From contig CAWFCQ010000003.1 in the NCBI GenBank assembly GCA_963814375.1, forward strand, positions 32,001 through 96,000: a stretch of DNA of 64,000 nt, in the 5' to 3' direction. The notes beneath the pieces are model-generated. The model was not told where the DNA came from and did not search any database. It was given only the letters and a program-made list of their open reading frames with translations. Origin of the DNA: an uncultured Chloroflexia bacterium (GTDB taxonomy: Bacteria > Chloroflexota > Limnocylindria > QHBO01). Shown here piece after piece: positions 3,564 through 12,904 of the stretch (the first letter of the stretch is position 1; the number at the start of each line of letters is the position of its first letter). The position numbers were made by a program, and so were the translations under genes.

Positions 3564-5012
3564 CTACTCGCCCGAACCGTCGTCCTCGAAGACCGATGCG
3601 CCCGCGGTGACCGCGGCGTGCTCTCCACCGCCAAGCGCCGCCGGCAGCGGCCGCGGGACCGGCACCAAAGCCACATGGCGCTCGACCACCTCGCGCGTGC
3701 CGGCGATGCCGAGGGCGTCGAAGAGGAGCCCGAACTTGGTGCGGAGGTTCGCGCCGATCTCATCGGCGGCTGATGTCGGGAGCGACCAGAGCTGGCGCTT
3801 GAACGGCCCGATCGCCTTCTTGCGCGTCTTGTACAGGAACTGCTCGTCGGTCTCGCCGTCCTTGCGCTCGTCGGCGCAGTTGGCGTCGCACCAGGCCATC
3901 ATCTCGGCCCGCAGATCGGCCGGGAGTCCTCCACCGTCGTAGAGGATGTTCTGGAAGCCGGTGGCGAGGTGGATCTCGGCGGTGCCGGCGGCCGGGAAGT
4001 TCCCGAACGCCTCCTCCGGCAGGGTCGAGGCGCCGTGCTGGACGCAGCCGGCCATGCCGTACTCGTCGCGCGCCACGGTCGAAAGGCGGCGCAGCGTGTC
4101 GAAGTCGATGCTCACTTCCGCCACCGAGCCGTCCGGCAGGACCACGCCACCGTGCGACGTGCCTGTCTGGACGCTCACCTTGCTGACCGGCTCGGCGTGG
4201 CCGCACAGCGCGAGGTAGCCGTCGAGGTAGGCGCGCAGCTCCTCTTCGGTCGAGTTCGACTTGCCGACCTCGCCGATCTCGCCGCCGATGCTGATCGTGA
4301 CGCCGTCGGGCTGGAGCGAGCGCACCAGGCGCGTCAGCTCGGCCGTGTTCTCGGCGTTGACCTGCTGCTGCTCGGCGACGGTCGGCTGCGACAGGTCCAC
4401 CAGCGTCGACGAATCGATGTCGATGTTCAGGAAGCCGGCGCCCACCGCTTCCCGGGTGAGGTCGCGCAGACCCTCGAGCTCACCGTCGGGATCGGTCGCC
4501 CACTTGGTGGCGTTGAACTGGAAGTGGTCGCCCTGGAGGAAGACAGGCGTGCGCCAGCCGCTGCGCAGGGCGGCAGCCAGGACGACCGCCGTGTACTCCG
4601 CCGGCCGCTGGTCGGTGTAGGCCATCTCGCTCTTGGCGATCTCGAAGATGACCGCCCCGGCGTCGCGCTCGAGCGCCGCGGCGAACGCCTGGCGCGCGGT
4701 CAGGTAGGTCGCGGCGCGGACGTTGATGGCGGGCACGGTGAAGGCATCGGCCGGCACCTCGCCGCGTCCGCGCGCGCGGTACAGCTCGTGGATCGAGGCG
4801 GACCCACAGCCGAGCGCCTGCGATGCGCTCCAGATCACCCATCGAGCCGCTTCGCGCAGCGACGCATCGGCGTTGAAGACGGCCTCGAAGACGATCTCGT
4901 CGATGAGCTCACCCCGGAGCGCAGCCTCGTCATGCACGTCAAGGCCGTCGTCACGGATGGAGGCCACACCGCTCAGGCGCTCGCGAAGGTCATCGGCGCT
5001 GGAGAAGGTCAC
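3564..5012 (-). CDS. Class II fructose-bisphosphate aldolase (long form)
   Basis: FTVPAINVR, QGDHFQ, GGEIGEVG, GTSHGG and VQHGAS metal/substrate motifs. Confidence 0.87.
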   Translation of the reverse strand: MTFSSADDLRERLSGVASIRDDGLDVHDEAALRGELIDEIVFEAVFNADASLREAARWVIWSASQALGCGSASIHELYRARGRGEVPADAFTVPAINVRAATYLTARQAFAAALERDAGAVIFEIAKSEMAYTDQRPAEYTAVVLAAALRSGWRTPVFLQGDHFQFNATKWATDPDGELEGLRDLTREAVGAGFLNIDIDSSTLVDLSQPTVAEQQQVNAENTAELTRLVRSLQPDGVTISIGGEIGEVGKSNSTEEELRAYLDGYLALCGHAEPVSKVSVQTGTSHGGVVLPDGSVAEVSIDFDTLRRLSTVARDEYGMAGCVQHGASTLPEEAFGNFPAAGTAEIHLATGFQNILYDGGGLPADLRAEMMAWCDANCADERKDGETDEQFLYKTRKKAIGPFKRQLWSLPTSAADEIGANLRTKFGLLFDALGIAGTREVVERHVALVPVPRPLPAALGGGEHAAVTAGASVFEDDGSGE

Positions 5013-5021
5013 CCGGCCATC

Positions 5022-5360
5022 CTACCGAAGGGCCGATGCGAGCGTGAAGGCCAGCAGGGGAGCCACGAGCAGCCCGAGCCCCGCCGCAAGCAGATACCAG
5101 TCGCGCGCCGCGCGCGCATCGGCGACGCCGCGTCGCTGGAGCGAAACGGTCCACCAACGAACCGCCGACAGGCCGATGACGTAGAGCACCGCTGCCAGGA
5201 CCACGACGCCGATGACGAACGGCCGCACGTCGGCGCAGTCGCCGAAGGCGAGCGGTCCCCCATCCGGGCAGGAAGCGGCGAGCTCGAGAGCGACGACGAG
5301 CCCGGCGAGCGCCAGGACGACGGCGCACCAGGCGAGGTGGACCGCGAGCGATCGGCTCAG
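5022..5360 (-). CDS. Small hypothetical membrane protein (3 TM)
   Basis: C-terminal part of the 5022..5840 ORF: three hydrophobic stretches and a CPDGGPLAFGDC loop. Start uncertain (CTG overlapping the upstream TGA). Confidence 0.55.
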   Translation of the reverse strand: MSRSLAVHLAWCAVVLALAGLVVALELAASCPDGGPLAFGDCADVRPFVIGVVVLAAVLYVIGLSAVRWWTVSLQRRGVADARAARDWYLLAAGLGLLVAPLLAFTLASALR

Positions 5361-5941
5361 CGGCGGGCGAGCTCGGTGCTGCGGCGCTCGGCCTCGACGG
5401 CCTCGCGCTGGGTGATGCGCTTGTACTCGTAGTACAGGTAGACGCATGCGAGGGCCCCAAGGCCGGCGGCCATCACGCCGAAGGCGATCGCCTGAAGCGG
5501 GAAGCGCGGCGGCCAGAAGGAGCCGCCCGCCAGGTTGAAGGCCATGATCGGGATGATGATCAGGACGGCGAGCAGGTAGTTGAGCCCGGTGAAGATCCGG
5601 ATCGTCGACCAGCCGAAACCCCGACGGCCGCGCGCGGCCTGGGCCAGCAGCCCGAGGATGATGATCAGCGCGAAGTTCGTCATGCCGACCCCGTTGGCGA
5701 TGAGGAAGCCGACGTCCTCGCTGAAGCGCAGGAACGGGATCTCGACCGTGACGAGGTAGTACACGTAGTTGGCGATATAGAAGACGATGAAGTAGATGAA
5801 CAGGAACAGCGGCACGCCCTTGAGCACCGCCACCAGCCACGTCTCGTAGCCGTACAGCAGCCAGTTCATGAAGTCGTCAGCCCAGCCGAGGAGACGGTTG
5901 AGACCGCCCTTGGGCCGATAGGTCGGATACGAGGTCGTCAT
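5357..5941 (-). CDS. Hypothetical multi-pass membrane protein in the Rieske/cyt b operon
   Basis: About 4 hydrophobic helices and strong GC3 codon bias; directly downstream of the cytochrome c gene. Confidence 0.8.
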   Translation of the reverse strand: MTTSYPTYRPKGGLNRLLGWADDFMNWLLYGYETWLVAVLKGVPLFLFIYFIVFYIANYVYYLVTVEIPFLRFSEDVGFLIANGVGMTNFALIIILGLLAQAARGRRGFGWSTIRIFTGLNYLLAVLIIIPIMAFNLAGGSFWPPRFPLQAIAFGVMAAGLGALACVYLYYEYKRITQREAVEAERRSTELARR

Positions 5942-5966
5942 CGATCTGGGCTCACTAGGTTTGGGC

Positions 5967-6770
5967 TCACTCGGTCTGGGCCAGGAGGAACGTGATCAGG
6001 GCTGCCATCTGGCTCTCGCTGATGACGTCCTCGGGATGGGGCGGCATGCCGGTCGGCTCGCCGTCGTTGTAGTTGCCAGCCGAGTCGCGGATCCACAGCT
6101 CCAGGAAGTTCGCCGGATCCTCCTCGTAGTCCGCGATCATCTGGTCCAGGCCGGATGGCTCGATCTCGAGATCGGTGATGAGGTTCGAGCCGATGGTCTG
6201 GAGGTTCGGCCCGACGCCGCCCTCCAGCTCCGCGCCGTGGCAGCCACCGCAGCCGACCGCCGCGTAGACCTCCTGCCCGGCCTCGACCGTGTTCTCCACC
6301 TCCGCGGGCGCCTCTTCGCCGGCCTCCACCGCCCAGCCCTCGACGAGCGCGACGACGGCATCGATCTGCTGCTCGTTCAGCGGGCCGCCGACCTCGGCCG
6401 CCCAAGCCGGCATCGGCGAGTTGACGTTGCCCGAGACGACCACGCCGCCGTAGCTGACGGCCAGGTTGACGTAGTTCGAGTTGACCCGCAGCTTGTTGGC
6501 CAGCGACGTGGTGTGCAGCGACGGGGCTTGGCGGCCGTCCGGATCGTTCGGGATCGCCCCACCCTCGCCCTCGGGGCCGTGACAGCGCGCGCACCCCGCG
6601 GCGGCCGGCTGGGTGTCATCGTCGCTGAAGACCACCTCGCCGTATTCGAGCAGCTCCTCGTCGTGCGCGGTAGCGATCTGCTCACGCCGCGCGTTGTCGG
6701 TGATCCAGTACATCATCGTCCACGCCGAAAGCGCGATCAGCAGGACGACGCCGAGCGACTTCAGGCGCAT
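5967..6770 (-). CDS. Membrane-anchored diheme cytochrome c
   Basis: N-terminal TM segment; CARCH and CGGCH heme motifs with candidate distal Met motifs MPAW and MPPH. Confidence 0.9.
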   Translation of the reverse strand: MRLKSLGVVLLIALSAWTMMYWITDNARREQIATAHDEELLEYGEVVFSDDDTQPAAAGCARCHGPEGEGGAIPNDPDGRQAPSLHTTSLANKLRVNSNYVNLAVSYGGVVVSGNVNSPMPAWAAEVGGPLNEQQIDAVVALVEGWAVEAGEEAPAEVENTVEAGQEVYAAVGCGGCHGAELEGGVGPNLQTIGSNLITDLEIEPSGLDQMIADYEEDPANFLELWIRDSAGNYNDGEPTGMPPHPEDVISESQMAALITFLLAQTE

Positions 6771-6774
6771 CGCA

Positions 6775-7431
6775 TCAGCCCGTGCAATGCTCCATGTCGG
6801 TCGGCACGCGCTGGTCGAAGGTGATGGTCCCGGGCGGCGGGCCGTTGAGCACCTCCGCGGTGTTGATGGTGTAGACGCCGTCCACGACGGTCACCGGGAA
6901 CCGGTCCATCCCGCGCGGGGCGGGCCCATCGCGCTTCTCGCCGAGCACCGTGTATTTCGAGCCGTGGCAGAGGCACTCGAACCACTGGCTGGCCTGGCAC
7001 ACCTGTGGGACCTGGCAGCCGAGGTGGGGGCACTTGCGATAGAGCGCCAACACCGAGCGGTCCTCCGGCGCAAGCTCGTCGCTCACTTCCGCGCCGGGAT
7101 CGGGAACCGGCTCCGCCACCGTCCCGTCGCCGTCGACCCGGGCCTTTGCCGCCGGCACGTTGACGAAGAAGAAGTTGGCCTGGTTGTAGATGTAGGGCAG
7201 GCCATTGGCCCACTCCGGGGCGAGGGTGTTGATGTCCTCCGCGGTGCCGAGCGAAATCTCGGCACCGAGCCCCTCGCTGAGGTTGGGCCAGAGAAATGCG
7301 AGCGTGGCGCCGACGAACTCGAGGGTCAGCACGCCCATCCCCACGCCGAGCATGCGACGCATGAAGGTGCGGCGGCTGATCTCGCCGTCACGGGGTCCGT
7401 GGACCGGTCCGTAGGAGGCGTGCTGGGTCAT
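6775..7431 (-). CDS. Rieske 2Fe-2S subunit of the Rieske/cyt b complex
   Basis: Tat motif SRRTFMRR plus TM; boxes CPHLGC and CLCHGSKY; GPAPR. Confidence 0.93.
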   Translation of the reverse strand: MTQHASYGPVHGPRDGEISRRTFMRRMLGVGMGVLTLEFVGATLAFLWPNLSEGLGAEISLGTAEDINTLAPEWANGLPYIYNQANFFFVNVPAAKARVDGDGTVAEPVPDPGAEVSDELAPEDRSVLALYRKCPHLGCQVPQVCQASQWFECLCHGSKYTVLGEKRDGPAPRGMDRFPVTVVDGVYTINTAEVLNGPPPGTITFDQRVPTDMEHCTG

Positions 7432-8054
7432 AGGTTGAAGAACAGTCCGTCCCACGGCCAGACCCAGCTCCAGCCGGGGCCGCGGAAGAAGGAGCCGATG
7501 AACGTCGTGATCAGCCCGCCGATCATCAGGCTCAGGAAGACGACCCACATCAGCTTGCGGTCACGGGCCGCCTTGTAGGGCGAGCGATCCAGGTACGGGA
7601 TGAGGATCAGGCCGCCGAGGTAGACGGGGATGATGAGCACGCCGGCCACGGTGGCGTTGAAGTAGCTCAGGATCTCCTGAAGGCCAAGGAAGTACCACGG
7701 CGCCTTGGCGACATGAGGCGTGACGGCCGGGTTGGCCATCTCCTCCAGCGGCGCCCGGATGAAGACGCTCGTGATCACGAGCAGCGCCATGATCAGGGCG
7801 GCCATTACGAACTCGGCGCGAAGCAGGTGCGGCCAGGTCAGCACGGTCTCGTCCGGGCGCTTGTCGACGCGGACCATCGACTCCTGCTTCACGTAGGCGA
7901 GGAGGCGGAAGCGCTCGGTGCCTGGCACGCCCGGAGGCCCGGGCAGCTTCGGCCCTCCCGGAGCCACGGCCGGCGCGGCGATCGGCGCACGCTCCGGCGC
8001 CTGCGTCGGGGCGTTCTTGTCGGCGGTCGCGTTCGGTCGCTTCTCGATCGTCAT
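7428..8054 (-). CDS. Cytochrome b6 subunit IV-like protein (PetD/QcrC-like)
   Basis: WPHLL, ANPAVTP, KAPWYF (PEWY-equivalent), PYLDRS; 3 TM. Confidence 0.88.
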   Translation of the reverse strand: MTIEKRPNATADKNAPTQAPERAPIAAPAVAPGGPKLPGPPGVPGTERFRLLAYVKQESMVRVDKRPDETVLTWPHLLRAEFVMAALIMALLVITSVFIRAPLEEMANPAVTPHVAKAPWYFLGLQEILSYFNATVAGVLIIPVYLGGLILIPYLDRSPYKAARDRKLMWVVFLSLMIGGLITTFIGSFFRGPGWSWVWPWDGLFFNL

Positions 8055-8070
8055 CGGTCGCTCCTGCAGC

Positions 8071-8805
8071 CTACACCGGCCCGCTGATCCCGCCGTCCTT
8101 GCGGATCCGCCAGAAGTGGACCACCAGGAACAGGGCGGTGACGAGCGGGAAGAAGATCACGTGGGCGACATAGAAGCGCAGCAGCGTCCCCTGTCCCACG
8201 GCGATCCCGCCAAGGAGGAAGAAGGCCGACTCGTCGGCGGCGAGCGGCGCGTAGGTCGCCATCTGGGTGCCGACGGTGATGGCCCAGAACGCGATCTGGT
8301 CCCACGGCAGCAGGTAGCCGGTGAAGCTGAGCGCCAGGGTGAAGAAGAGCAGCAAAACGCCGACGACCCAATTGAACTCGCGCGGCGGCTTGTAGGCGCC
8401 GTGGTAGAAGACGCGGATCATGTGGAGGAAGACGGTGAGCACCATGAGGTGCGCCGCCCAGCGATGCATGTTGCGGGTGAAGTCGCCGAACGCGATGGAT
8501 GCGCTGATAGCCTGGATGTCCTGGTAGGCGCGGCTCACCGACGGGACATAGAAGAACATCAGGTAGAGGCCGGTGACGGTCAGCGCCAGGAACAGGAAGA
8601 AGCTGATCCCGCCCAGGCAGAACGTGTAGGTGTATCGCACGGCGTGGCGCTTCACGCGCACCGGGTGGAGGTGGAGGAAGACGTTGTTCATCACCGCCAG
8701 CGCGCGGGTGCGGCTGGTGTGCGGGTAGGGCTGGCGGAAGACGCTGCGCCAGGCCGCGGTCTCGGTGACCCAGCGCACGACCGGGTTGCGGTCGCCGTTG
8801 CTCAT
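8071..8805 (-). CDS. Cytochrome b6-type subunit (PetB/QcrB-like)
   Basis: FCLGG (heme ci Cys), HRWAAH...H, GYLLPWDQ, second His pair separated by 14 residues, C-terminal [11 protein letters not shown]. Confidence 0.95.
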
Positions 8806-10775
8806 CGGTTCACCGTCACACCGGCCTGCTGGCCGACCTGTCCGAGCACGTTGTCCTTGTAGCTCTCCAAGAGCACCTTCCCGTCAGGCGTGAACCGCTC
8901 GAGCTCGAGCCGGTCCATGGTGATGCAGTTGGTCGGACACCGTTCGACGCAGAGGTTGCAGCGGATGCAGCGCTCCTCGTCGATGATCATGGCGATACCG
9001 CGCGGCCACGCCTGGAAGAAGTCCTGCTCCGGGTCGTCGCCGCCGACCTGCGCCTTGTCGATCATGTAGATCACGCCCTCGGGGCAGACGTCGGCGCAGA
9101 GCCCGCACAGGATACAGCGGGGCCCGTCGATGTTGATGTTGTGGTTGCACTGGAGGCAGCGGCTACCCTCGTCGATCGCGCTGCGGGTGTCGTAGCCGAC
9201 TTCCACCAGCGACGTGAAGTCGCGCCGCAGCTCCGGCGGCGCCATCGGGATCTCCTGCCGATGGGTCGCCTCGTAGAAGCGCGGCATGTCGTGCTCGAGG
9301 CTCTGGGTGATGACCGCACGGTTGATGACCGGCAGCTCCTCGAGCTCCTCGCCGCGGAGCCCCGCCAGCCAACGGTCCACGGCTCGCGCCGCGCGACGCC
9401 CGAGCCCGGCCGCCTCGATGATCGTGGCCGGCCCGGTGACGAAGTCGCCGACCGCGAAGACGCCATCGTTGCTCGTTCCGAAGGTATCCGCGTTGATGAC
9501 CACGTTGCCGCGGTTGAAGTCGAAGGCCAGGTTGTTCATCGGCATGCCGCGGGCGTCCGTCGGCGTGCTGCCGTTCAGCGGCGCGGTGCGCCAGGAGCTC
9601 AGGGAACCGCCCTCGACCACGGTGCGCGTGTCGGTCACGCCCACGTGCCGGTTGAGCTGCGCGCCGAACTCGCCGAGGACGTTGTTGTCCGACGCCTGGC
9701 TGGTGCACGGGATGACCATGTCGCACGGGATGGTGAACTCGCTGCCGGGAATCGGCTCTGCGCTGCGCCGACCGCTGGCATCCGGAGGGCCCAGGCGGGT
9801 GCGCTGGAACGTGATGCCGGTCACGCGGCCGTCCGGGCCGGCCTGGACCTCGACCGGGGAGCTGAAGTACTCGAAGGCGACGCCCTCGAAGCGCGTCTCG
9901 TGCTGCTCCTCCTCGTCCACCACCATCTCGTCCGGGCCGCGGCGGTAGACGATCGTGCTGGTCTTGGCGCCGAGTCTGAGCGCCGTGCGCGACGAGTCCA
10001 TGGCGGTGTAGCCGCCGCCGATGATGACCACGTGCTCGCCGACCCACTGCGGCTGGCCCAGGTTCGCGCGCTTGAGGAAGTCGACGCCGTAGATCACGCC
10101 GTCGAGCTCCTCGCCGGGCACGTTCATCGCCACGGGGTACATGCAGCCGGTCGCGACCACGACCGCGTCGTGACGCTCCTTCAGCTGGTCCAGGGTGATG
10201 TCGCGGCCGATCTCGACGTTGTAGTGGAACTGCACGCCGTGCTTGGCGACCCAGTTGACGTCGAGCTCGATGACGTCACGCGGCAGCCGGAAGGCCGGGA
10301 CGCCGATGAGGGTCGTGCCGCCGCCGGAGGGAAGCGCCTCGTAGACGTGCACTTCGTGACCCCAGCCGCCCAGCTCCTTGGCCGCGGCCAGGCCAGCCGG
10401 GCCGGCTCCGATGACGGCCACGCTGCGACCGGTGGGAGGGGCGACCACGACGTTGTCCGGCATGTTGTTGCTGTAATGCCAGTCGACCAGGAAGCGCTTC
10501 ATGGCGCGGATGGCGAGCGGCTTGTCGATGTCGGCGCGGCGGCAGGCCTTCTCACACGGGGCGGAGCAGACATAGCCGCAGATCGCGGCCACCGGATTCG
10601 GGTCGCGAGCGAGGATGTAGCCCTCCTCGAAGCGACCCTCGGCGGCCAGCATGAGGTAGCCCCGGCAGTTCGTGTTGACCGGGCAGCCTTCCTGGCACTC
10701 GATGTTGCACTGAAGCCAGTCGACGCCGACCTCGGCAGTCTGGAACCTCAGTGGAATCGCGGTATCGCTGATCAC
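8802..10775 (-). CDS. FAD/NAD(P)H oxidoreductase with N- and C-terminal 4Fe-4S domains (GltD/NfnB/DsrL-like)
   Basis: [65 protein letters not shown]. Stop overlaps the cyt b6 start (ATGA). Confidence 0.92.
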
Positions 10776-10876
10776 GGCGTCGTGGTCGCTCTCCGGGCGT
10801 GGTCAAACCATGGGGCCATAAGGAGCGGCGCCACCGATGCTACCCGTTCCCTCTTGCACGGCGCAAGGAGAACGCC

Positions 10877-12904
10877 TCAGCCCGCAAAGTGCGCGGCCAT
10901 CACCCGCCGCACGAGCGGCGCCGCATCCGAGCCTCCGGTGCCGAGCGGAATATTGGGCAGGATGGTGGCGACGCTGACGGTCGGATCGTCGGCAGGAGCG
11001 AATGCCGGGAACCAGGCATGCGGGTCTGGCCCGCCCGTTTCGGCGGTGCCGGACTTGCCGGCGACCGGGATCCCGAAGCCGGCGAAGGCAGCGGTGCCGG
11101 TGCCGTACGGGAGGGTGACGACGGCCTGGAGCGTATCGGTCACGAAGGCGAGGCTGGCGTCGTCCATCGGGATGTCGTTGGCGACCGTCGGGGCGACCTC
11201 CTCGACCAGGGTCCCGTCCGGCAGCCTGGCCGCGATCACGATGCGCGGCTTCCACAGCGTCCCGCCGTTGCCGATGGCGGCATAAGCGTTGGCCAGCTGG
11301 AGCGGGGTGCCCAGAAAGGCGCCCTGGCCGATGGCCAGCTGGACCTGCTCGAAGCCCGAGTATCCCCCACGGCCGTTCTCGCGCAGCCACGCGTCGTCCG
11401 GCACGATCCCGGTCTCCTCGATGAGGAAGCCGATGCCGGTCGGCGCGCCGAACCCGAAGTCCTTGAGCAGGTCGGTCAGCGCGGTCTCGTTCTGCTGGTA
11501 GACCTCGTAGGCCAGCGGCATGTAGGTCGTGTTGCAGCTGAAGGCCATCGACTCGCGCATCCCGACGGCGCCCGGCAGCGAGTGGTTCATGTAGTTGCGG
11601 AAGGTGAACCCGTTGTACGACCACGTCGGTGGGCAGGCGCGGGCGCTGGTCGGGGTGACCACGCCGGTCTGGAGCGCGACGGCCAGCGTGAACGGCTTGA
11701 ATGACGAGCCGGCCGGATAGGCGCCCAGCACCGCCTTGTTGAAGACCTGCGCCGGGCCGGCCGGGCTCAGCGGTACGCCGCCGTAGGTCGTGCCGGTCGT
11801 CATCGAGTTCGGGTTGAAGGCCGGCTGGCTGGCCAGGGCCCATACGTCGCCGCTGCGCGGGTCGATCACCGCGGTGGCGCCCTGCGGGTACGGGTCGAGC
11901 GCGACCTGGGCCGCCAGCTGCACGGAGGGGCGGATGGTGGTCGCGACATCGGCGCCGGGCACCATCTCGGTCTGGTACAGGACGGACTCGGCGCCGTCCT
12001 GACCGACGGCGACCAGCGTCCAGCCTGGAGTGCCGCGCAGCAGCTCCTCGGCGCCGAGCTCGAGGCCCGAGCGGCCGACGATGTCCCCGGCGCGATATCC
12101 ATCGGCCGCTAGCGTGGTGAGGTCCTCGGCCGTCACCTCACTGGCGTAGCCGATGACCTGGCCGGCGAGCGCCTCCTGCGGATAGACCCGCGCCCCGTCA
12201 TCGCGGGTCTCCGCCCACACGACCCCTCCCGCGCCGATGATCCGGCCGCGAGCGCCGAGCTGGCGGTCGAGTCGCAGGGTCCCGGCGGCGCCGAGCTCTG
12301 GGAAGAGGAGCTCGGGGCTCCAGCGCAGCACCCAGCCATCGGTGCCCTGGACGAGTGTCAGCGATCGTTCCAGGTCGAGGTCCCCGAACCGCGTCGAGCT
12401 GACGTCGATGTCGACCGGGATCGCCATCCCGGGCACGGGGCCGGCGAGCGGCTCGTTCGGATCGAGGCTGGGTGCGGGAGTTGGCGTCGGCGTGGCCGAG
12501 GGATCCGGTGTGGCCGATGGATCGGCGGATGGCACCGGCGTCGGCGACGGCGCGGGGAATGCCGGCGGCCTCGGTTCGGGGAGGAGCGCGATCGGCTCAG
12601 GGGAGCCGGCCGTGGCGGCGACCTCCTCGACCATCGCCATCTCCGCGAACGAGCTGTGGAGAGCGACGAACGCCTCCAGCGGATACCGCTCCTGGATGGC
12701 GGGGTCGACGGTCGCGTACATCGCCGCGTAGTTGCCCGCAGCCCAGGCATCCAGGTACTCGGCCGCGAGGCCCGCTGCCGCATCGGGGCCGGCGACCGGG
12801 AAGGTGGTGGGGACCGGCGTGGGCTCCGGGGTCGGCTCGAGGCTGCAGGCGCCAAGGACGAGCAGCAGCAGGGCTGCGAGGGCGCGCACGGCGAGGCGGC
12901 TCAT
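10877..12904 (-). CDS. Class B penicillin-binding protein (lipoprotein, MecA/PBP2a-like N-domain)
   Basis: Lipobox LGAC; intact SSFK, SCN and KSGT transpeptidase motifs. Confidence 0.9.
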   Translation of the reverse strand: MSRLAVRALAALLLLVLGACSLEPTPEPTPVPTTFPVAGPDAAAGLAAEYLDAWAAGNYAAMYATVDPAIQERYPLEAFVALHSSFAEMAMVEEVAATAGSPEPIALLPEPRPPAFPAPSPTPVPSADPSATPDPSATPTPTPAPSLDPNEPLAGPVPGMAIPVDIDVSSTRFGDLDLERSLTLVQGTDGWVLRWSPELLFPELGAAGTLRLDRQLGARGRIIGAGGVVWAETRDDGARVYPQEALAGQVIGYASEVTAEDLTTLAADGYRAGDIVGRSGLELGAEELLRGTPGWTLVAVGQDGAESVLYQTEMVPGADVATTIRPSVQLAAQVALDPYPQGATAVIDPRSGDVWALASQPAFNPNSMTTGTTYGGVPLSPAGPAQVFNKAVLGAYPAGSSFKPFTLAVALQTGVVTPTSARACPPTWSYNGFTFRNYMNHSLPGAVGMRESMAFSCNTTYMPLAYEVYQQNETALTDLLKDFGFGAPTGIGFLIEETGIVPDDAWLRENGRGGYSGFEQVQLAIGQGAFLGTPLQLANAYAAIGNGGTLWKPRIVIAARLPDGTLVEEVAPTVANDIPMDDASLAFVTDTLQAVVTLPYGTGTAAFAGFGIPVAGKSGTAETGGPDPHAWFPAFAPADDPTVSVATILPNIPLGTGGSDAAPLVRRVMAAHFAG

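Follow-up and report, generated by a model that had tools for sequence, protein, structure and literature searches.

The APWY clade of cytochrome b was defined by Kao and Hunte, who listed none of its members as characterised as of 2014 (PMC4122944), and it corresponds to subfamily G of Dibrova et al. (2013/2017, PMC5600118). Short cytochromes b of subfamily G are found together with large NAD(P)-binding iron-sulfur (FeS) proteins in planctomycete operons and "in many other cases"; the legend of supplement 3 counts PF07992 in 26 cytochrome b neighbourhoods, and the same supplement places Ktedonobacter racemifer, Ilumatobacter coccineus and anammox genera in the subfamily (PMC5600118). Published taxon lists include Chloroflexi, Actinobacteria and Planctomycetes (PMC4122944, PMC5600118). 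The Rieske/cytochrome b complexes of anammox bacteria have been modelled, and not purified to a structure, according to a 2025 paper (PMC12954380). Here we describe a seven-gene operon of this kind, headed by an FeS flavoprotein with an NAD(P)H site, in a 64,000-nucleotide stretch of DNA (the window; contig CAWFCQ010000003.1, positions 32,001 to 96,000) from an uncultured member of the Limnocylindria. The host is a soil or freshwater member of the Chloroflexota, and the arrangement has so far been discussed mainly for anammox bacteria. To our knowledge, no complex of the APWY clade has ever been characterised.

A first-pass annotation, made from the sequence alone, had described a close-packed operon of a flavoprotein, cytochrome b6, subunit IV, a Rieske protein, a diheme cytochrome c and two membrane proteins, and all seven open reading frames (ORFs) are present on the minus strand across 10775-5022 (Table 1). 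Read directly from the sequence, the flavoprotein stop and the b6 start overlap in an ATGA at 8805-8802; a second ATGA, at 7431-7428, joins the subunit IV stop to the Rieske start, and the other intergenic gaps in the operon, taken from the ORF coordinates, are 16, 4 and 25 nt. GGAGAG stands 13 nt ahead of the flavoprotein GTG, in a window of ~70% G+C.

Cytochrome b is split, with PF00033 and PF00032 on separate ORFs. In the b6 subunit the heme-ligand histidines H114, H128, H215 and H230, the N-terminal LHLHP (H45, H47) and C63, G65 and G66 of the CxGG motif are invariant in 48 sequences. The last motif, FCLGG in the window, is WCMGG in sister families. When b6 is aligned with its Chlamydomonas counterpart (1q90_B), Cys63 falls on Cys35, the heme ci/cn cysteine; heme ci had been named at first pass as a mark of b6f-like complexes. 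A covalently attached heme ci/cn is predicted from the CxGG motif. Subunit IV has three hydrophobic segments, and its PDB matches are C-terminal parts of cytochromes b and b6f subunit IV. Both its quinol-oxidation (Qo) motif APWY (KAPWYF; K117-A-P-W-Y121) and a WPHLL..EF element (H76, E81) at the n-side end of its first helix are invariant in 38 sequences. The Rieske protein carries the cluster boxes CPHLGC and CLCHGSKY and probably starts with MTQH..., followed by an RR signal motif, at the ATG given in Table 1 rather than at the longest-ORF start, 7548. The gene content establishes a complete predicted b6-type quinol:cytochrome c oxidoreductase of the APWY clade (subfamily G), with which it shares the split b6 and subunit IV, the APWY motif, CxGG and the co-occurring NAD(P)-binding FeS protein. 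The b6/subunit IV/Rieske core and the heme cn cysteine are also those of chloroplast and cyanobacterial b6f; differences from b6f are APWY in place of PEWY, a GltD/NfnB-type FeS flavoprotein in place of plant-type FNR, and a host that is non-photosynthetic as far as examined.

Identity with the ExtP/ExtQ pair of the Geobacter selenite/tellurite reduction operon was considered and rejected. The b6 subunit scores 290.2 bits against NCBIfam cytb_ExtP (cut-off 290) and subunit IV matches ExtQ, although at 62 bits against a cut-off of 150, and in the window the pair shares its operon with a flavoprotein and a diheme cytochrome c. The likeness reflects a common broad cytochrome b clade rather than the Ext system.

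The closest described counterparts are the Kuste4569-4574 and Kustd1480-1485 clusters of Kuenenia stuttgartiensis, each of which combines a four-helix b6 with heme cn motif, subunit IV and a Rieske protein with a putative NAD(P) oxidoreductase that has four FeS clusters besides FAD. For Kuste4570, the published structural homologues (9bp5 NfnABC and 5t5i FwdF; PMC12954380) recur among the PDB matches of the window flavoprotein (9bov/9bp5, 5t5i_F), and it is through these common homologues that we liken it to Kuste4570/Kustd1483. The two best PDB matches of the Rieske protein, 9rk3_A and 9rk4_A, carry CHGSGF and CHGSKY, the boxes given for Kustd1480 and Kuste4569 (PMC12954380), and are probably the Kuenenia Rieske structures. 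The anammox complexes differ in having hexa- or octaheme cytochromes and an HAO-like protein, where the diheme cytochrome c is the sole operon cytochrome c here, and in the five helices modelled for their subunit IV, against three hydrophobic segments. They also differ in their hosts, that of the window being an aerobe-like member of the Chloroflexota with a single detected cytochrome b.

The flavoprotein shows Fer4_20 at 21-104, Pyr_redox_2 at 118-374 and a Fer4 dicluster at 547-622, which bears out the FAD and NAD(P)H sites and the C-terminal 2x[4Fe-4S] domain read from the sequence at first pass. Both curated thresholds are passed (PF14691, 64.4 bits, cut-off 25.8; PF07992, 94 bits, cut-off 26.1). 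No named NCBIfam equivalog (gltA, GOGAT small subunit, AegA, YgfK, others) reached its cut-off among the 25 of 100 matched families listed, the best of the listed matches being PRK12771 at 414 bits against 516. The best PDB matches are 9n5u_A, 9bov_A, 8oh5_C and 4ylf_B; with 5jca_L, these NfnB and Bfu-type NfnA/StnC chains share the Fer4_20 and Pyr_redox_2 core and YRR (E 1e-98 to 1e-66). YRR at residues 277-279 aligns with YRR of the NADPH-binding NfnB chains 4ylf_B and 5jca_L and suggests NADPH as the nucleotide, as the annotation had proposed. Unlike the Nfn and Stn chains, the window flavoprotein has no adjoining NfnA/NuoF-type partner gene, its neighbours being membrane cytochromes, and it ends in a single two-cluster ferredoxin domain in place of formate-dehydrogenase-like or NuoG-like domains.

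Alignments of 39 and of 18 homologues define the invariant residues of the flavoprotein, which also has a lineage-variable insertion at ~375-415. The description of its GltD-type clusters as N-terminal holds for five cysteines (C27, C31, C70, C74, C78), invariant in the 18 homologues from three lineages; it does not hold for the equally invariant R-C-L-x-C (539-543; C540, C543), which lies after the FAD domain. NfnB has its RCLQC at the N-terminus, and the Bfu-type NfnA/StnC chains have RCLxC after the FAD domain, as here. The linker bearing RCLxC may fold back and complete two GltD-type clusters, which together with the C-terminal domain (C554/557/560/564 and C603/606/609/613, two CxxCxxCxxxCP motifs, again invariant in the 18 homologues) would bring the total to four clusters, as many as in the model of the anammox NAD(P) oxidoreductase subunit (PMC12954380). 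The label DsrL-like is apt as a description of domain order only, the closest solved relatives being the Bfu-type NfnA/StnC and NfnB chains. The order in DsrL is the same: N-terminal FeS region, FAD/NAD(P)H core, linker and C-terminal two-cluster ferredoxin. No dsr genes flank the window flavoprotein, which lies between a penicillin-binding protein (PBP) gene and b6; this concerns the flanks, dsrAB not having been searched for genome-wide. Structure prediction was uninformative: AlphaFold2 on the whole flavoprotein (39 sequences) gave a mean pLDDT of 58.6 with every FeS region below 50, and a complex prediction of b6 dimer, subunit IV dimer and flavoprotein residues 500-657, with our own alignments, returned a score of 0.00 and no model, which is evidence neither way.

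Loss of synteny between the flavoprotein and the bc genes in relatives had been named in advance as an observation that would speak against a joint complex, and synteny was kept. Flavoprotein followed by b6 was found in 12/12 loci from 12 genomes in four other families of the class (the unpublished genome G006 is among the genomes of this class-level survey); nine of these loci reach the Rieske gene and three end at contig ends. An alignment scan with b6, one genome per species, kept the best 80 of at least 596 matches, which we grouped by record title and b6 identity. Among 43 Limnocylindria-like loci, 39 have the full flavoprotein upstream of b6 and two more are truncated where their contigs stop. 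The flavoprotein-b6 order is thereby kept in all 41 loci with both an operon and sequence upstream; of the other two, one lacks upstream sequence and the other (L063) is an orphan b6. Nothing matched upstream of b6 in nine of 10 loci from Ktedonobacteria, the tenth lacking upstream sequence, and no flavoprotein match was found upstream of b6 in five loci from Dehalococcoidia or in three others. In the 19 loci from Actinomycetota only the C-terminal ferredoxin part of the flavoprotein found a match upstream of b6, in 19/19.

Co-occurrence was then counted by hand in 201 genomes of Chloroflexota at least 80% complete, with the flavoprotein C-terminus as query (E <= 1e-16) and at least 55% identity for the b6 type. 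The flavoprotein matches always lay in frames of 600-900 aa, except one at a contig end. Both genes are present in 43 genomes, the flavoprotein without the b6 type in one (G150, a weak match) and neither in 138, such that the b6 type occurs in 43/44 flavoprotein carriers, compared with 62/201 genomes overall. In 17 of the 43 co-occurring genomes, all from Limnocylindria families, the flavoprotein adjoins b6. At the survey cut-offs neither gene is present in five Limnocylindria genomes (four plus G238) that belong to genera g11 and g13 and are 93-95% complete, and in four of the five the absence also held with whole flavoprotein and b6 queries. These counts include the unpublished genomes G088 (both genes, unlinked) and G211 (b6 only), and they must be read as few evolutionary events, related genomes not being independent.

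Among 201 genomes of Actinomycetota, 12 have a long-frame flavoprotein match at E <= 1.5e-20, weaker ones (such as G333 and G261) being outside the count; eight unpublished genomes of this phylum gave short-frame matches only. With one probable wrong bin set aside (G338, 91% identical), the remaining 11/11 keep the five-gene order flavoprotein-b6-subunit IV-Rieske-cytochrome c at 32-36% flavoprotein identity. The arrangement thus recurs in two phyla and is far beyond chance. Strict motif patterns returned nothing on the b6 genes linked to these flavoproteins; the patterns were too strict for this to be evidence of absence. The b6-linked flavoproteins of Actinomycetota (L111-L120; L108:9925-11790) have L-E-S/A in place of YRR, which suggests NADH rather than NADPH, and an insertion of ~40 residues after GGGxxAxD of the NAD(P) domain. 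These sequences suggest that nucleotide preference changed between the phyla.

A gene for a 2x[4Fe-4S] protein of 115-152 aa stands directly upstream of b6 in each of the 19 loci from Actinomycetota (L074-L076, L079, L081-L083, L087, L089, L091, L092, L098, L099, L101-L103, L105-L107; for example L103:8428-8877). It has a conserved N-terminal segment, DDY...VD..W...K.PK, and its NCBIfam name is generic ferredoxin or NuoI-like. A hidden Markov model of the 19 ferredoxins, run against all ORFs of the genome from which the window comes, found the flavoprotein best (E 5.9e-17; next 5.5e-4). In the reverse search with residues 500-657 of the flavoprotein, the b6-linked ferredoxin was the best match in four of five Actinomycetota genomes; in the fifth, G044, it was a 621-aa full-length homologue that heads a second flavoprotein-b6-subunit IV-Rieske-cytochrome c operon. 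By these reciprocal matches the small ferredoxin is specifically related to the C-terminal domain of the flavoprotein. These findings on the small ferredoxin are the main reason why we regard this domain as a candidate b6-associated module.

The host genome is a metagenome-assembled genome (MAG) of the Limnocylindria (2.5 Mb, 89% complete, 4.5% contamination), and the operon lies on a contig of 255 kb. The annotation had judged the host to be apparently non-anammox. Close homologues of the flavoprotein are titled Candidatus Limnocylindria or Chloroflexota, and the genome encodes a heme-copper oxidase subunit I as well as NuoD and NuoF of complex I, which accords with that judgement; PntB is encoded too. 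One cytochrome b was detected. No NrfD-type protein (alternative complex III) or cytochrome bd was found, which at 89% completeness does not prove absence. The operon is the only link from quinol to cytochrome c detected in this genome.

We tentatively favour a reading in which the flavoprotein is an n-side partner of the b6 complex and electrons flow inward, from NADPH to the quinone-reduction (Qn) site, although we put its probability somewhat short of an even chance. The seven genes would encode the main, and only detected, quinol:cytochrome c oxidoreductase, a menaquinol-type b6/subunit IV/Rieske/diheme-c complex, with the cytoplasmic flavoprotein attached peripherally. NADPH would bind at the FAD, electrons would travel along four [4Fe-4S] clusters, two of GltD type and two of ferredoxin type, and the C-terminal ferredoxin domain would face the heme bn/cn pair of b6. 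Delivered to the Qn site, these electrons would make the complex an NADPH:menaquinone reductase and, via the Q cycle, an NADPH:cytochrome c reductase. The gene content, cofactor motifs, operon order and phyletic co-occurrence behind this model are direct observations; from them we infer that the flavoprotein binds the complex, that its C-terminal domain makes the contact, and which way the electrons flow. WPH..EF and CxGG are invariant with or without the flavoprotein, and the Qn site therefore looks intact. The single cytochrome b, the heme-copper oxidase and the failure to find an alternative complex III or cytochrome bd imply that the complex must run forward with a working Q cycle. Transfer from NADPH to menaquinone is downhill. 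Potentials that make it so are also found in PMC12954380, and the idea of a stromal or cytoplasmic reductant entering at heme cn has been discussed for b6f (PMC5600118). The flavoprotein-b6 unit might be a hard-wired counterpart of FNR/ferredoxin feeding heme cn in chloroplast b6f.

Several points weigh against inward flow into a stable complex. Binding of the flavoprotein to b6 is so far a prediction from genomics. The flavoprotein is unlinked in 26 of the 43 co-occurring Chloroflexota genomes, lying on other contigs or at least 146 kb away, and the cultured Dictyobacter alpinus and Tengunoibacter tsumagoiensis have a homologue of 602-612 aa, 37% identical and with matching Pfam architecture, well away from the b6 operon; 19 of the 201 genomes have the b6 type without the flavoprotein. 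The host already has complex I, PntB and an NfnA/Bfu-like protein, so an extra entry for NADPH is not obviously needed. The architecture is common among database representatives: about half of the best 150 50%-identity cluster representatives are near full-length matches of 550-700 aa, judged by eye from the table. The anammox modellers argue that inward flow would be wasteful in their organisms (PMC12954380), and their case for bifurcation is matched by the high-potential Ser/Tyr signature in the Rieske protein, though this signature is found in groups with and without the flavoprotein alike.

Outward flow, the Kartal-type proposal for anammox, reverses this scheme. Quinol would be bifurcated at Qo, its high-potential electron passing to the Rieske protein, diheme c and oxidase and its low-potential electron through heme bp, bn/cn, four FeS clusters and FAD to NADP+, which would give complex III a second role, either generating NADPH at the expense of quinol or acting as a safety valve when the b-heme chain is over-reduced. 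We consider this somewhat less likely for the window than inward flow, but a strong rival. The subunit set matches that of the anammox complexes, for which outward flow is the favoured reading (PMC12954380), the Rieske CHGSKY carries the same Ser/Tyr pair as 9rk4_A, the flavoprotein has its nearest solved relatives among the NADP(H) modules of reversible electron-bifurcating Nfn/Stn enzymes, and YRR points to NADPH, a biosynthetic reductant. However, the Qn features are conserved, and NADP+ reduction would be short-circuited if the Qn site works, a difficulty that the anammox authors themselves raise (PMC12954380). The Ser/Tyr pair does not track the presence of the flavoprotein and was dropped as an argument: nearly all groups have CHGS.Y, whether they carry a flavoprotein or not (a few have CHGS.F or CHGAS.F, and the G044 operon CHGSVF), and it thus does not discriminate between flow directions. 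Moreover, the host resembles an aerobic heterotroph supplied with NADPH by PntB and an NfnA-like protein, L-E-S/A in Actinomycetota suggests NADH, of which such organisms have no shortage, and by our rough estimate menaquinol offers little driving force against the membrane potential. It is also conceivable, but improbable, that no stable complex forms, the flavoprotein being a soluble NADPH:ferredoxin-type or NADPH:acceptor oxidoreductase that is merely co-regulated, or docks transiently like FNR, with its main partner elsewhere. We retain this possibility mainly on account of the 26 unlinked genomes; it also agrees with a flavoprotein sequence without a hydrophobic segment, with the two cultured Ktedonobacteria, with the frequency of the architecture and with the 19 genomes that have only b6. 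It sits poorly with the ATGA translational coupling, the operon order kept across two phyla, the b6 type in nearly all flavoprotein carriers, the joint absence of both genes from g11 and g13, and the b6-adjacent ferredoxins related to the C-terminal domain. Chance adjacency, misassembly or a mis-binned contig might be suspected from the estimated contamination of the MAG and from odd labels on some public records with the operon (L033, Steroidobacteraceae). The length of the contig, the recurrence of the order together with flanking PBP and aldolase-like genes in close relatives, and the core order in dozens of independent assemblies refute this reading, to which we give a negligible chance.

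Table 1. Genes of the flavoprotein-b6 operon (window coordinates).
Gene product	Coordinates	Strand	Length and start	Family match or feature
Flavoprotein	8802-10775	minus	657 aa, GTG start	Pfam and NCBIfam matches
Cytochrome b6	8071-8805	minus	244 aa	PF00033
Subunit IV	7428-8054	minus	208 aa	PF00032
Rieske iron-sulfur protein	6775-7431	minus	218 aa, ATG 7431	PF00355
Membrane-anchored diheme cytochrome c	5967-6770	minus	267 aa	PF00034, two stretches; two CxxCH
memA, membrane protein	5357-5941	minus	194 aa	no family match; ~4 hydrophobic segments
memB, small membrane protein	~5022-5356	minus	~111 aa conserved	no family match

The two membrane proteins at the end of the operon have no Pfam or NCBIfam match and are lineage-specific. 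By tblastn, memA is found at 49-77% identity in the 12/12 close loci L028-L039 and in none of the other 68, and in the Protein Atlas it falls in Chloroflexota "hypothetical" clusters only; it is confined to close relatives. memB has two conserved Cys, and its stop-to-stop frame is kept in the nine close relatives examined. Its start is unsettled because conservation begins directly after the memA stop (5357-5359) and no ATG, GTG or TTG occurs from there to 5229; the start may be ATG 5446, with a 90-nt overlap with memA, or a non-standard codon near 5361, such as a CTG overlapping the stop.

Upstream of the operon, across a 100-nt spacer, lies the PBP (transpeptidase) gene, which precedes it in 10/12 of the loci L028-L039; L036 has no sequence there, and L039, with fragmented genes, gave no match. 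Downstream is a class II aldolase-like gene, present in 11/12 of these loci, L031 ending before it. In the window it occupies 3564-5012 on the minus strand (482 aa); its class II fructose-bisphosphate aldolase match is weak (51.8 bits), and a match to GatZ/KbaZ stays below threshold. A scan of 4800-11100 found no promoter-like site and two terminator-like sites against 2.0 expected. Among sequencing runs, the best contains at most 0.16 of the sampled words. At 85% likeness, contigs from four RNA libraries of three studies span 26 to 30 of 30 bins; they are short and come from relatives, and so cannot show transcription or a single transcript.

Further observations concern related loci. In Ktedonobacteria a membrane-anchored protein of 329-339 aa with a weak plastocyanin-like (cupredoxin) match replaces the diheme cytochrome c (L073:11281-12270, L078:11229-12248), and the b6 operon continues with a membrane protein of ~480 aa without family match. 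The orphan b6 paralogue, 68-69% identical (L063:8527-9699, plus strand; G023:C460:953-1648), occupies a 390-aa frame with a ~200-aa N-terminal extension, and no subunit IV, Rieske or flavoprotein gene was found near it in L063 or G023. Outside the window, the host genome encodes a 795-aa Bfu-type NfnA/StnC-like protein (L002:1105-3492, plus strand; G000:C3 ~124968-127355) directly after the sole NuoF-family gene detected, beside NuoD/NuoF; it combines Fer2_4, a NuoG-type 4Fe-4S region, Fer4_20, Pyr_redox_2 and two 4Fe-4S ferredoxin motifs. A Limnocylindria-type operon occurs in L033, titled a Steroidobacteraceae MAG, at 87-88% identity with the flanking PBP and aldolase-like genes included, and G338:C43:1904-2377, in the set of Actinomycetota genomes, encodes a flavoprotein C-terminus 91% identical to that of the window. 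Both copies are likely mis-binned contigs.

The annotation had suspected an uncharacterised NAD(P)H-linked bc complex. This interpretation is partly supported, to the extent that genomic evidence can support it, but complexes of the kind are already in print (PMC5600118). A literature search, judged by title, found no paper on this complex in Limnocylindria. The surveys of the APWY clade contain no Limnocylindria genomes and no counts of linked versus unlinked flavoproteins, and in the parts of those papers covered here a stand-alone b6-adjacent ferredoxin is not described. Three points may be new: the operon is conserved throughout the aerobic class Limnocylindria; flavoprotein and b6 type co-occur strictly even when their genes lie apart, cultured strains included; and there is a ferredoxin-only variant related to the C-terminal domain of the flavoprotein. 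Some of these counts may have appeared before, in the Kao and Hunte supplements and the 2013 Dibrova article.

The flavoprotein-headed operon emerges as the standard complex III of an abundant aerobic class of Chloroflexota and of a minority of Actinomycetota. A flavoprotein of the same architecture strictly co-occurs with the b6 type in those Chloroflexota families to which, by similarity, the b6 loci of the two cultured Ktedonobacteria can be assigned; in both strains its gene is unlinked. Occurrence in aerobic Chloroflexota and in Actinomycetota, together with the ferredoxin-only version, indicates that the function is not anammox-specific. Anammox carriers are hard to grow, and tractable material is now at hand for an old question of photosynthesis, namely whether electrons pass between heme cn of b6-type complexes and the NADPH and ferredoxin of the cytoplasm or stroma. 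More speculatively, we envisage a widespread b6-type complex III (found in Chloroflexota, in Actinomycetota and, judging by published work, in Planctomycetota) with a cytoplasmic FeS port at heme cn, either a bare two-cluster ferredoxin or such a module as part of an NAD(P)H flavoprotein fusion, that works outward in aerobes, where quinol oxidation with O2 as sink would drive NAD(P)+/ferredoxin reduction by Q-cycle bifurcation. We regard this as doubtful. If it were true, organisms that feed electrons in at the quinone level, such as trace-gas oxidisers, could obtain low-potential reductant and be spared reverse electron transport through complex I.

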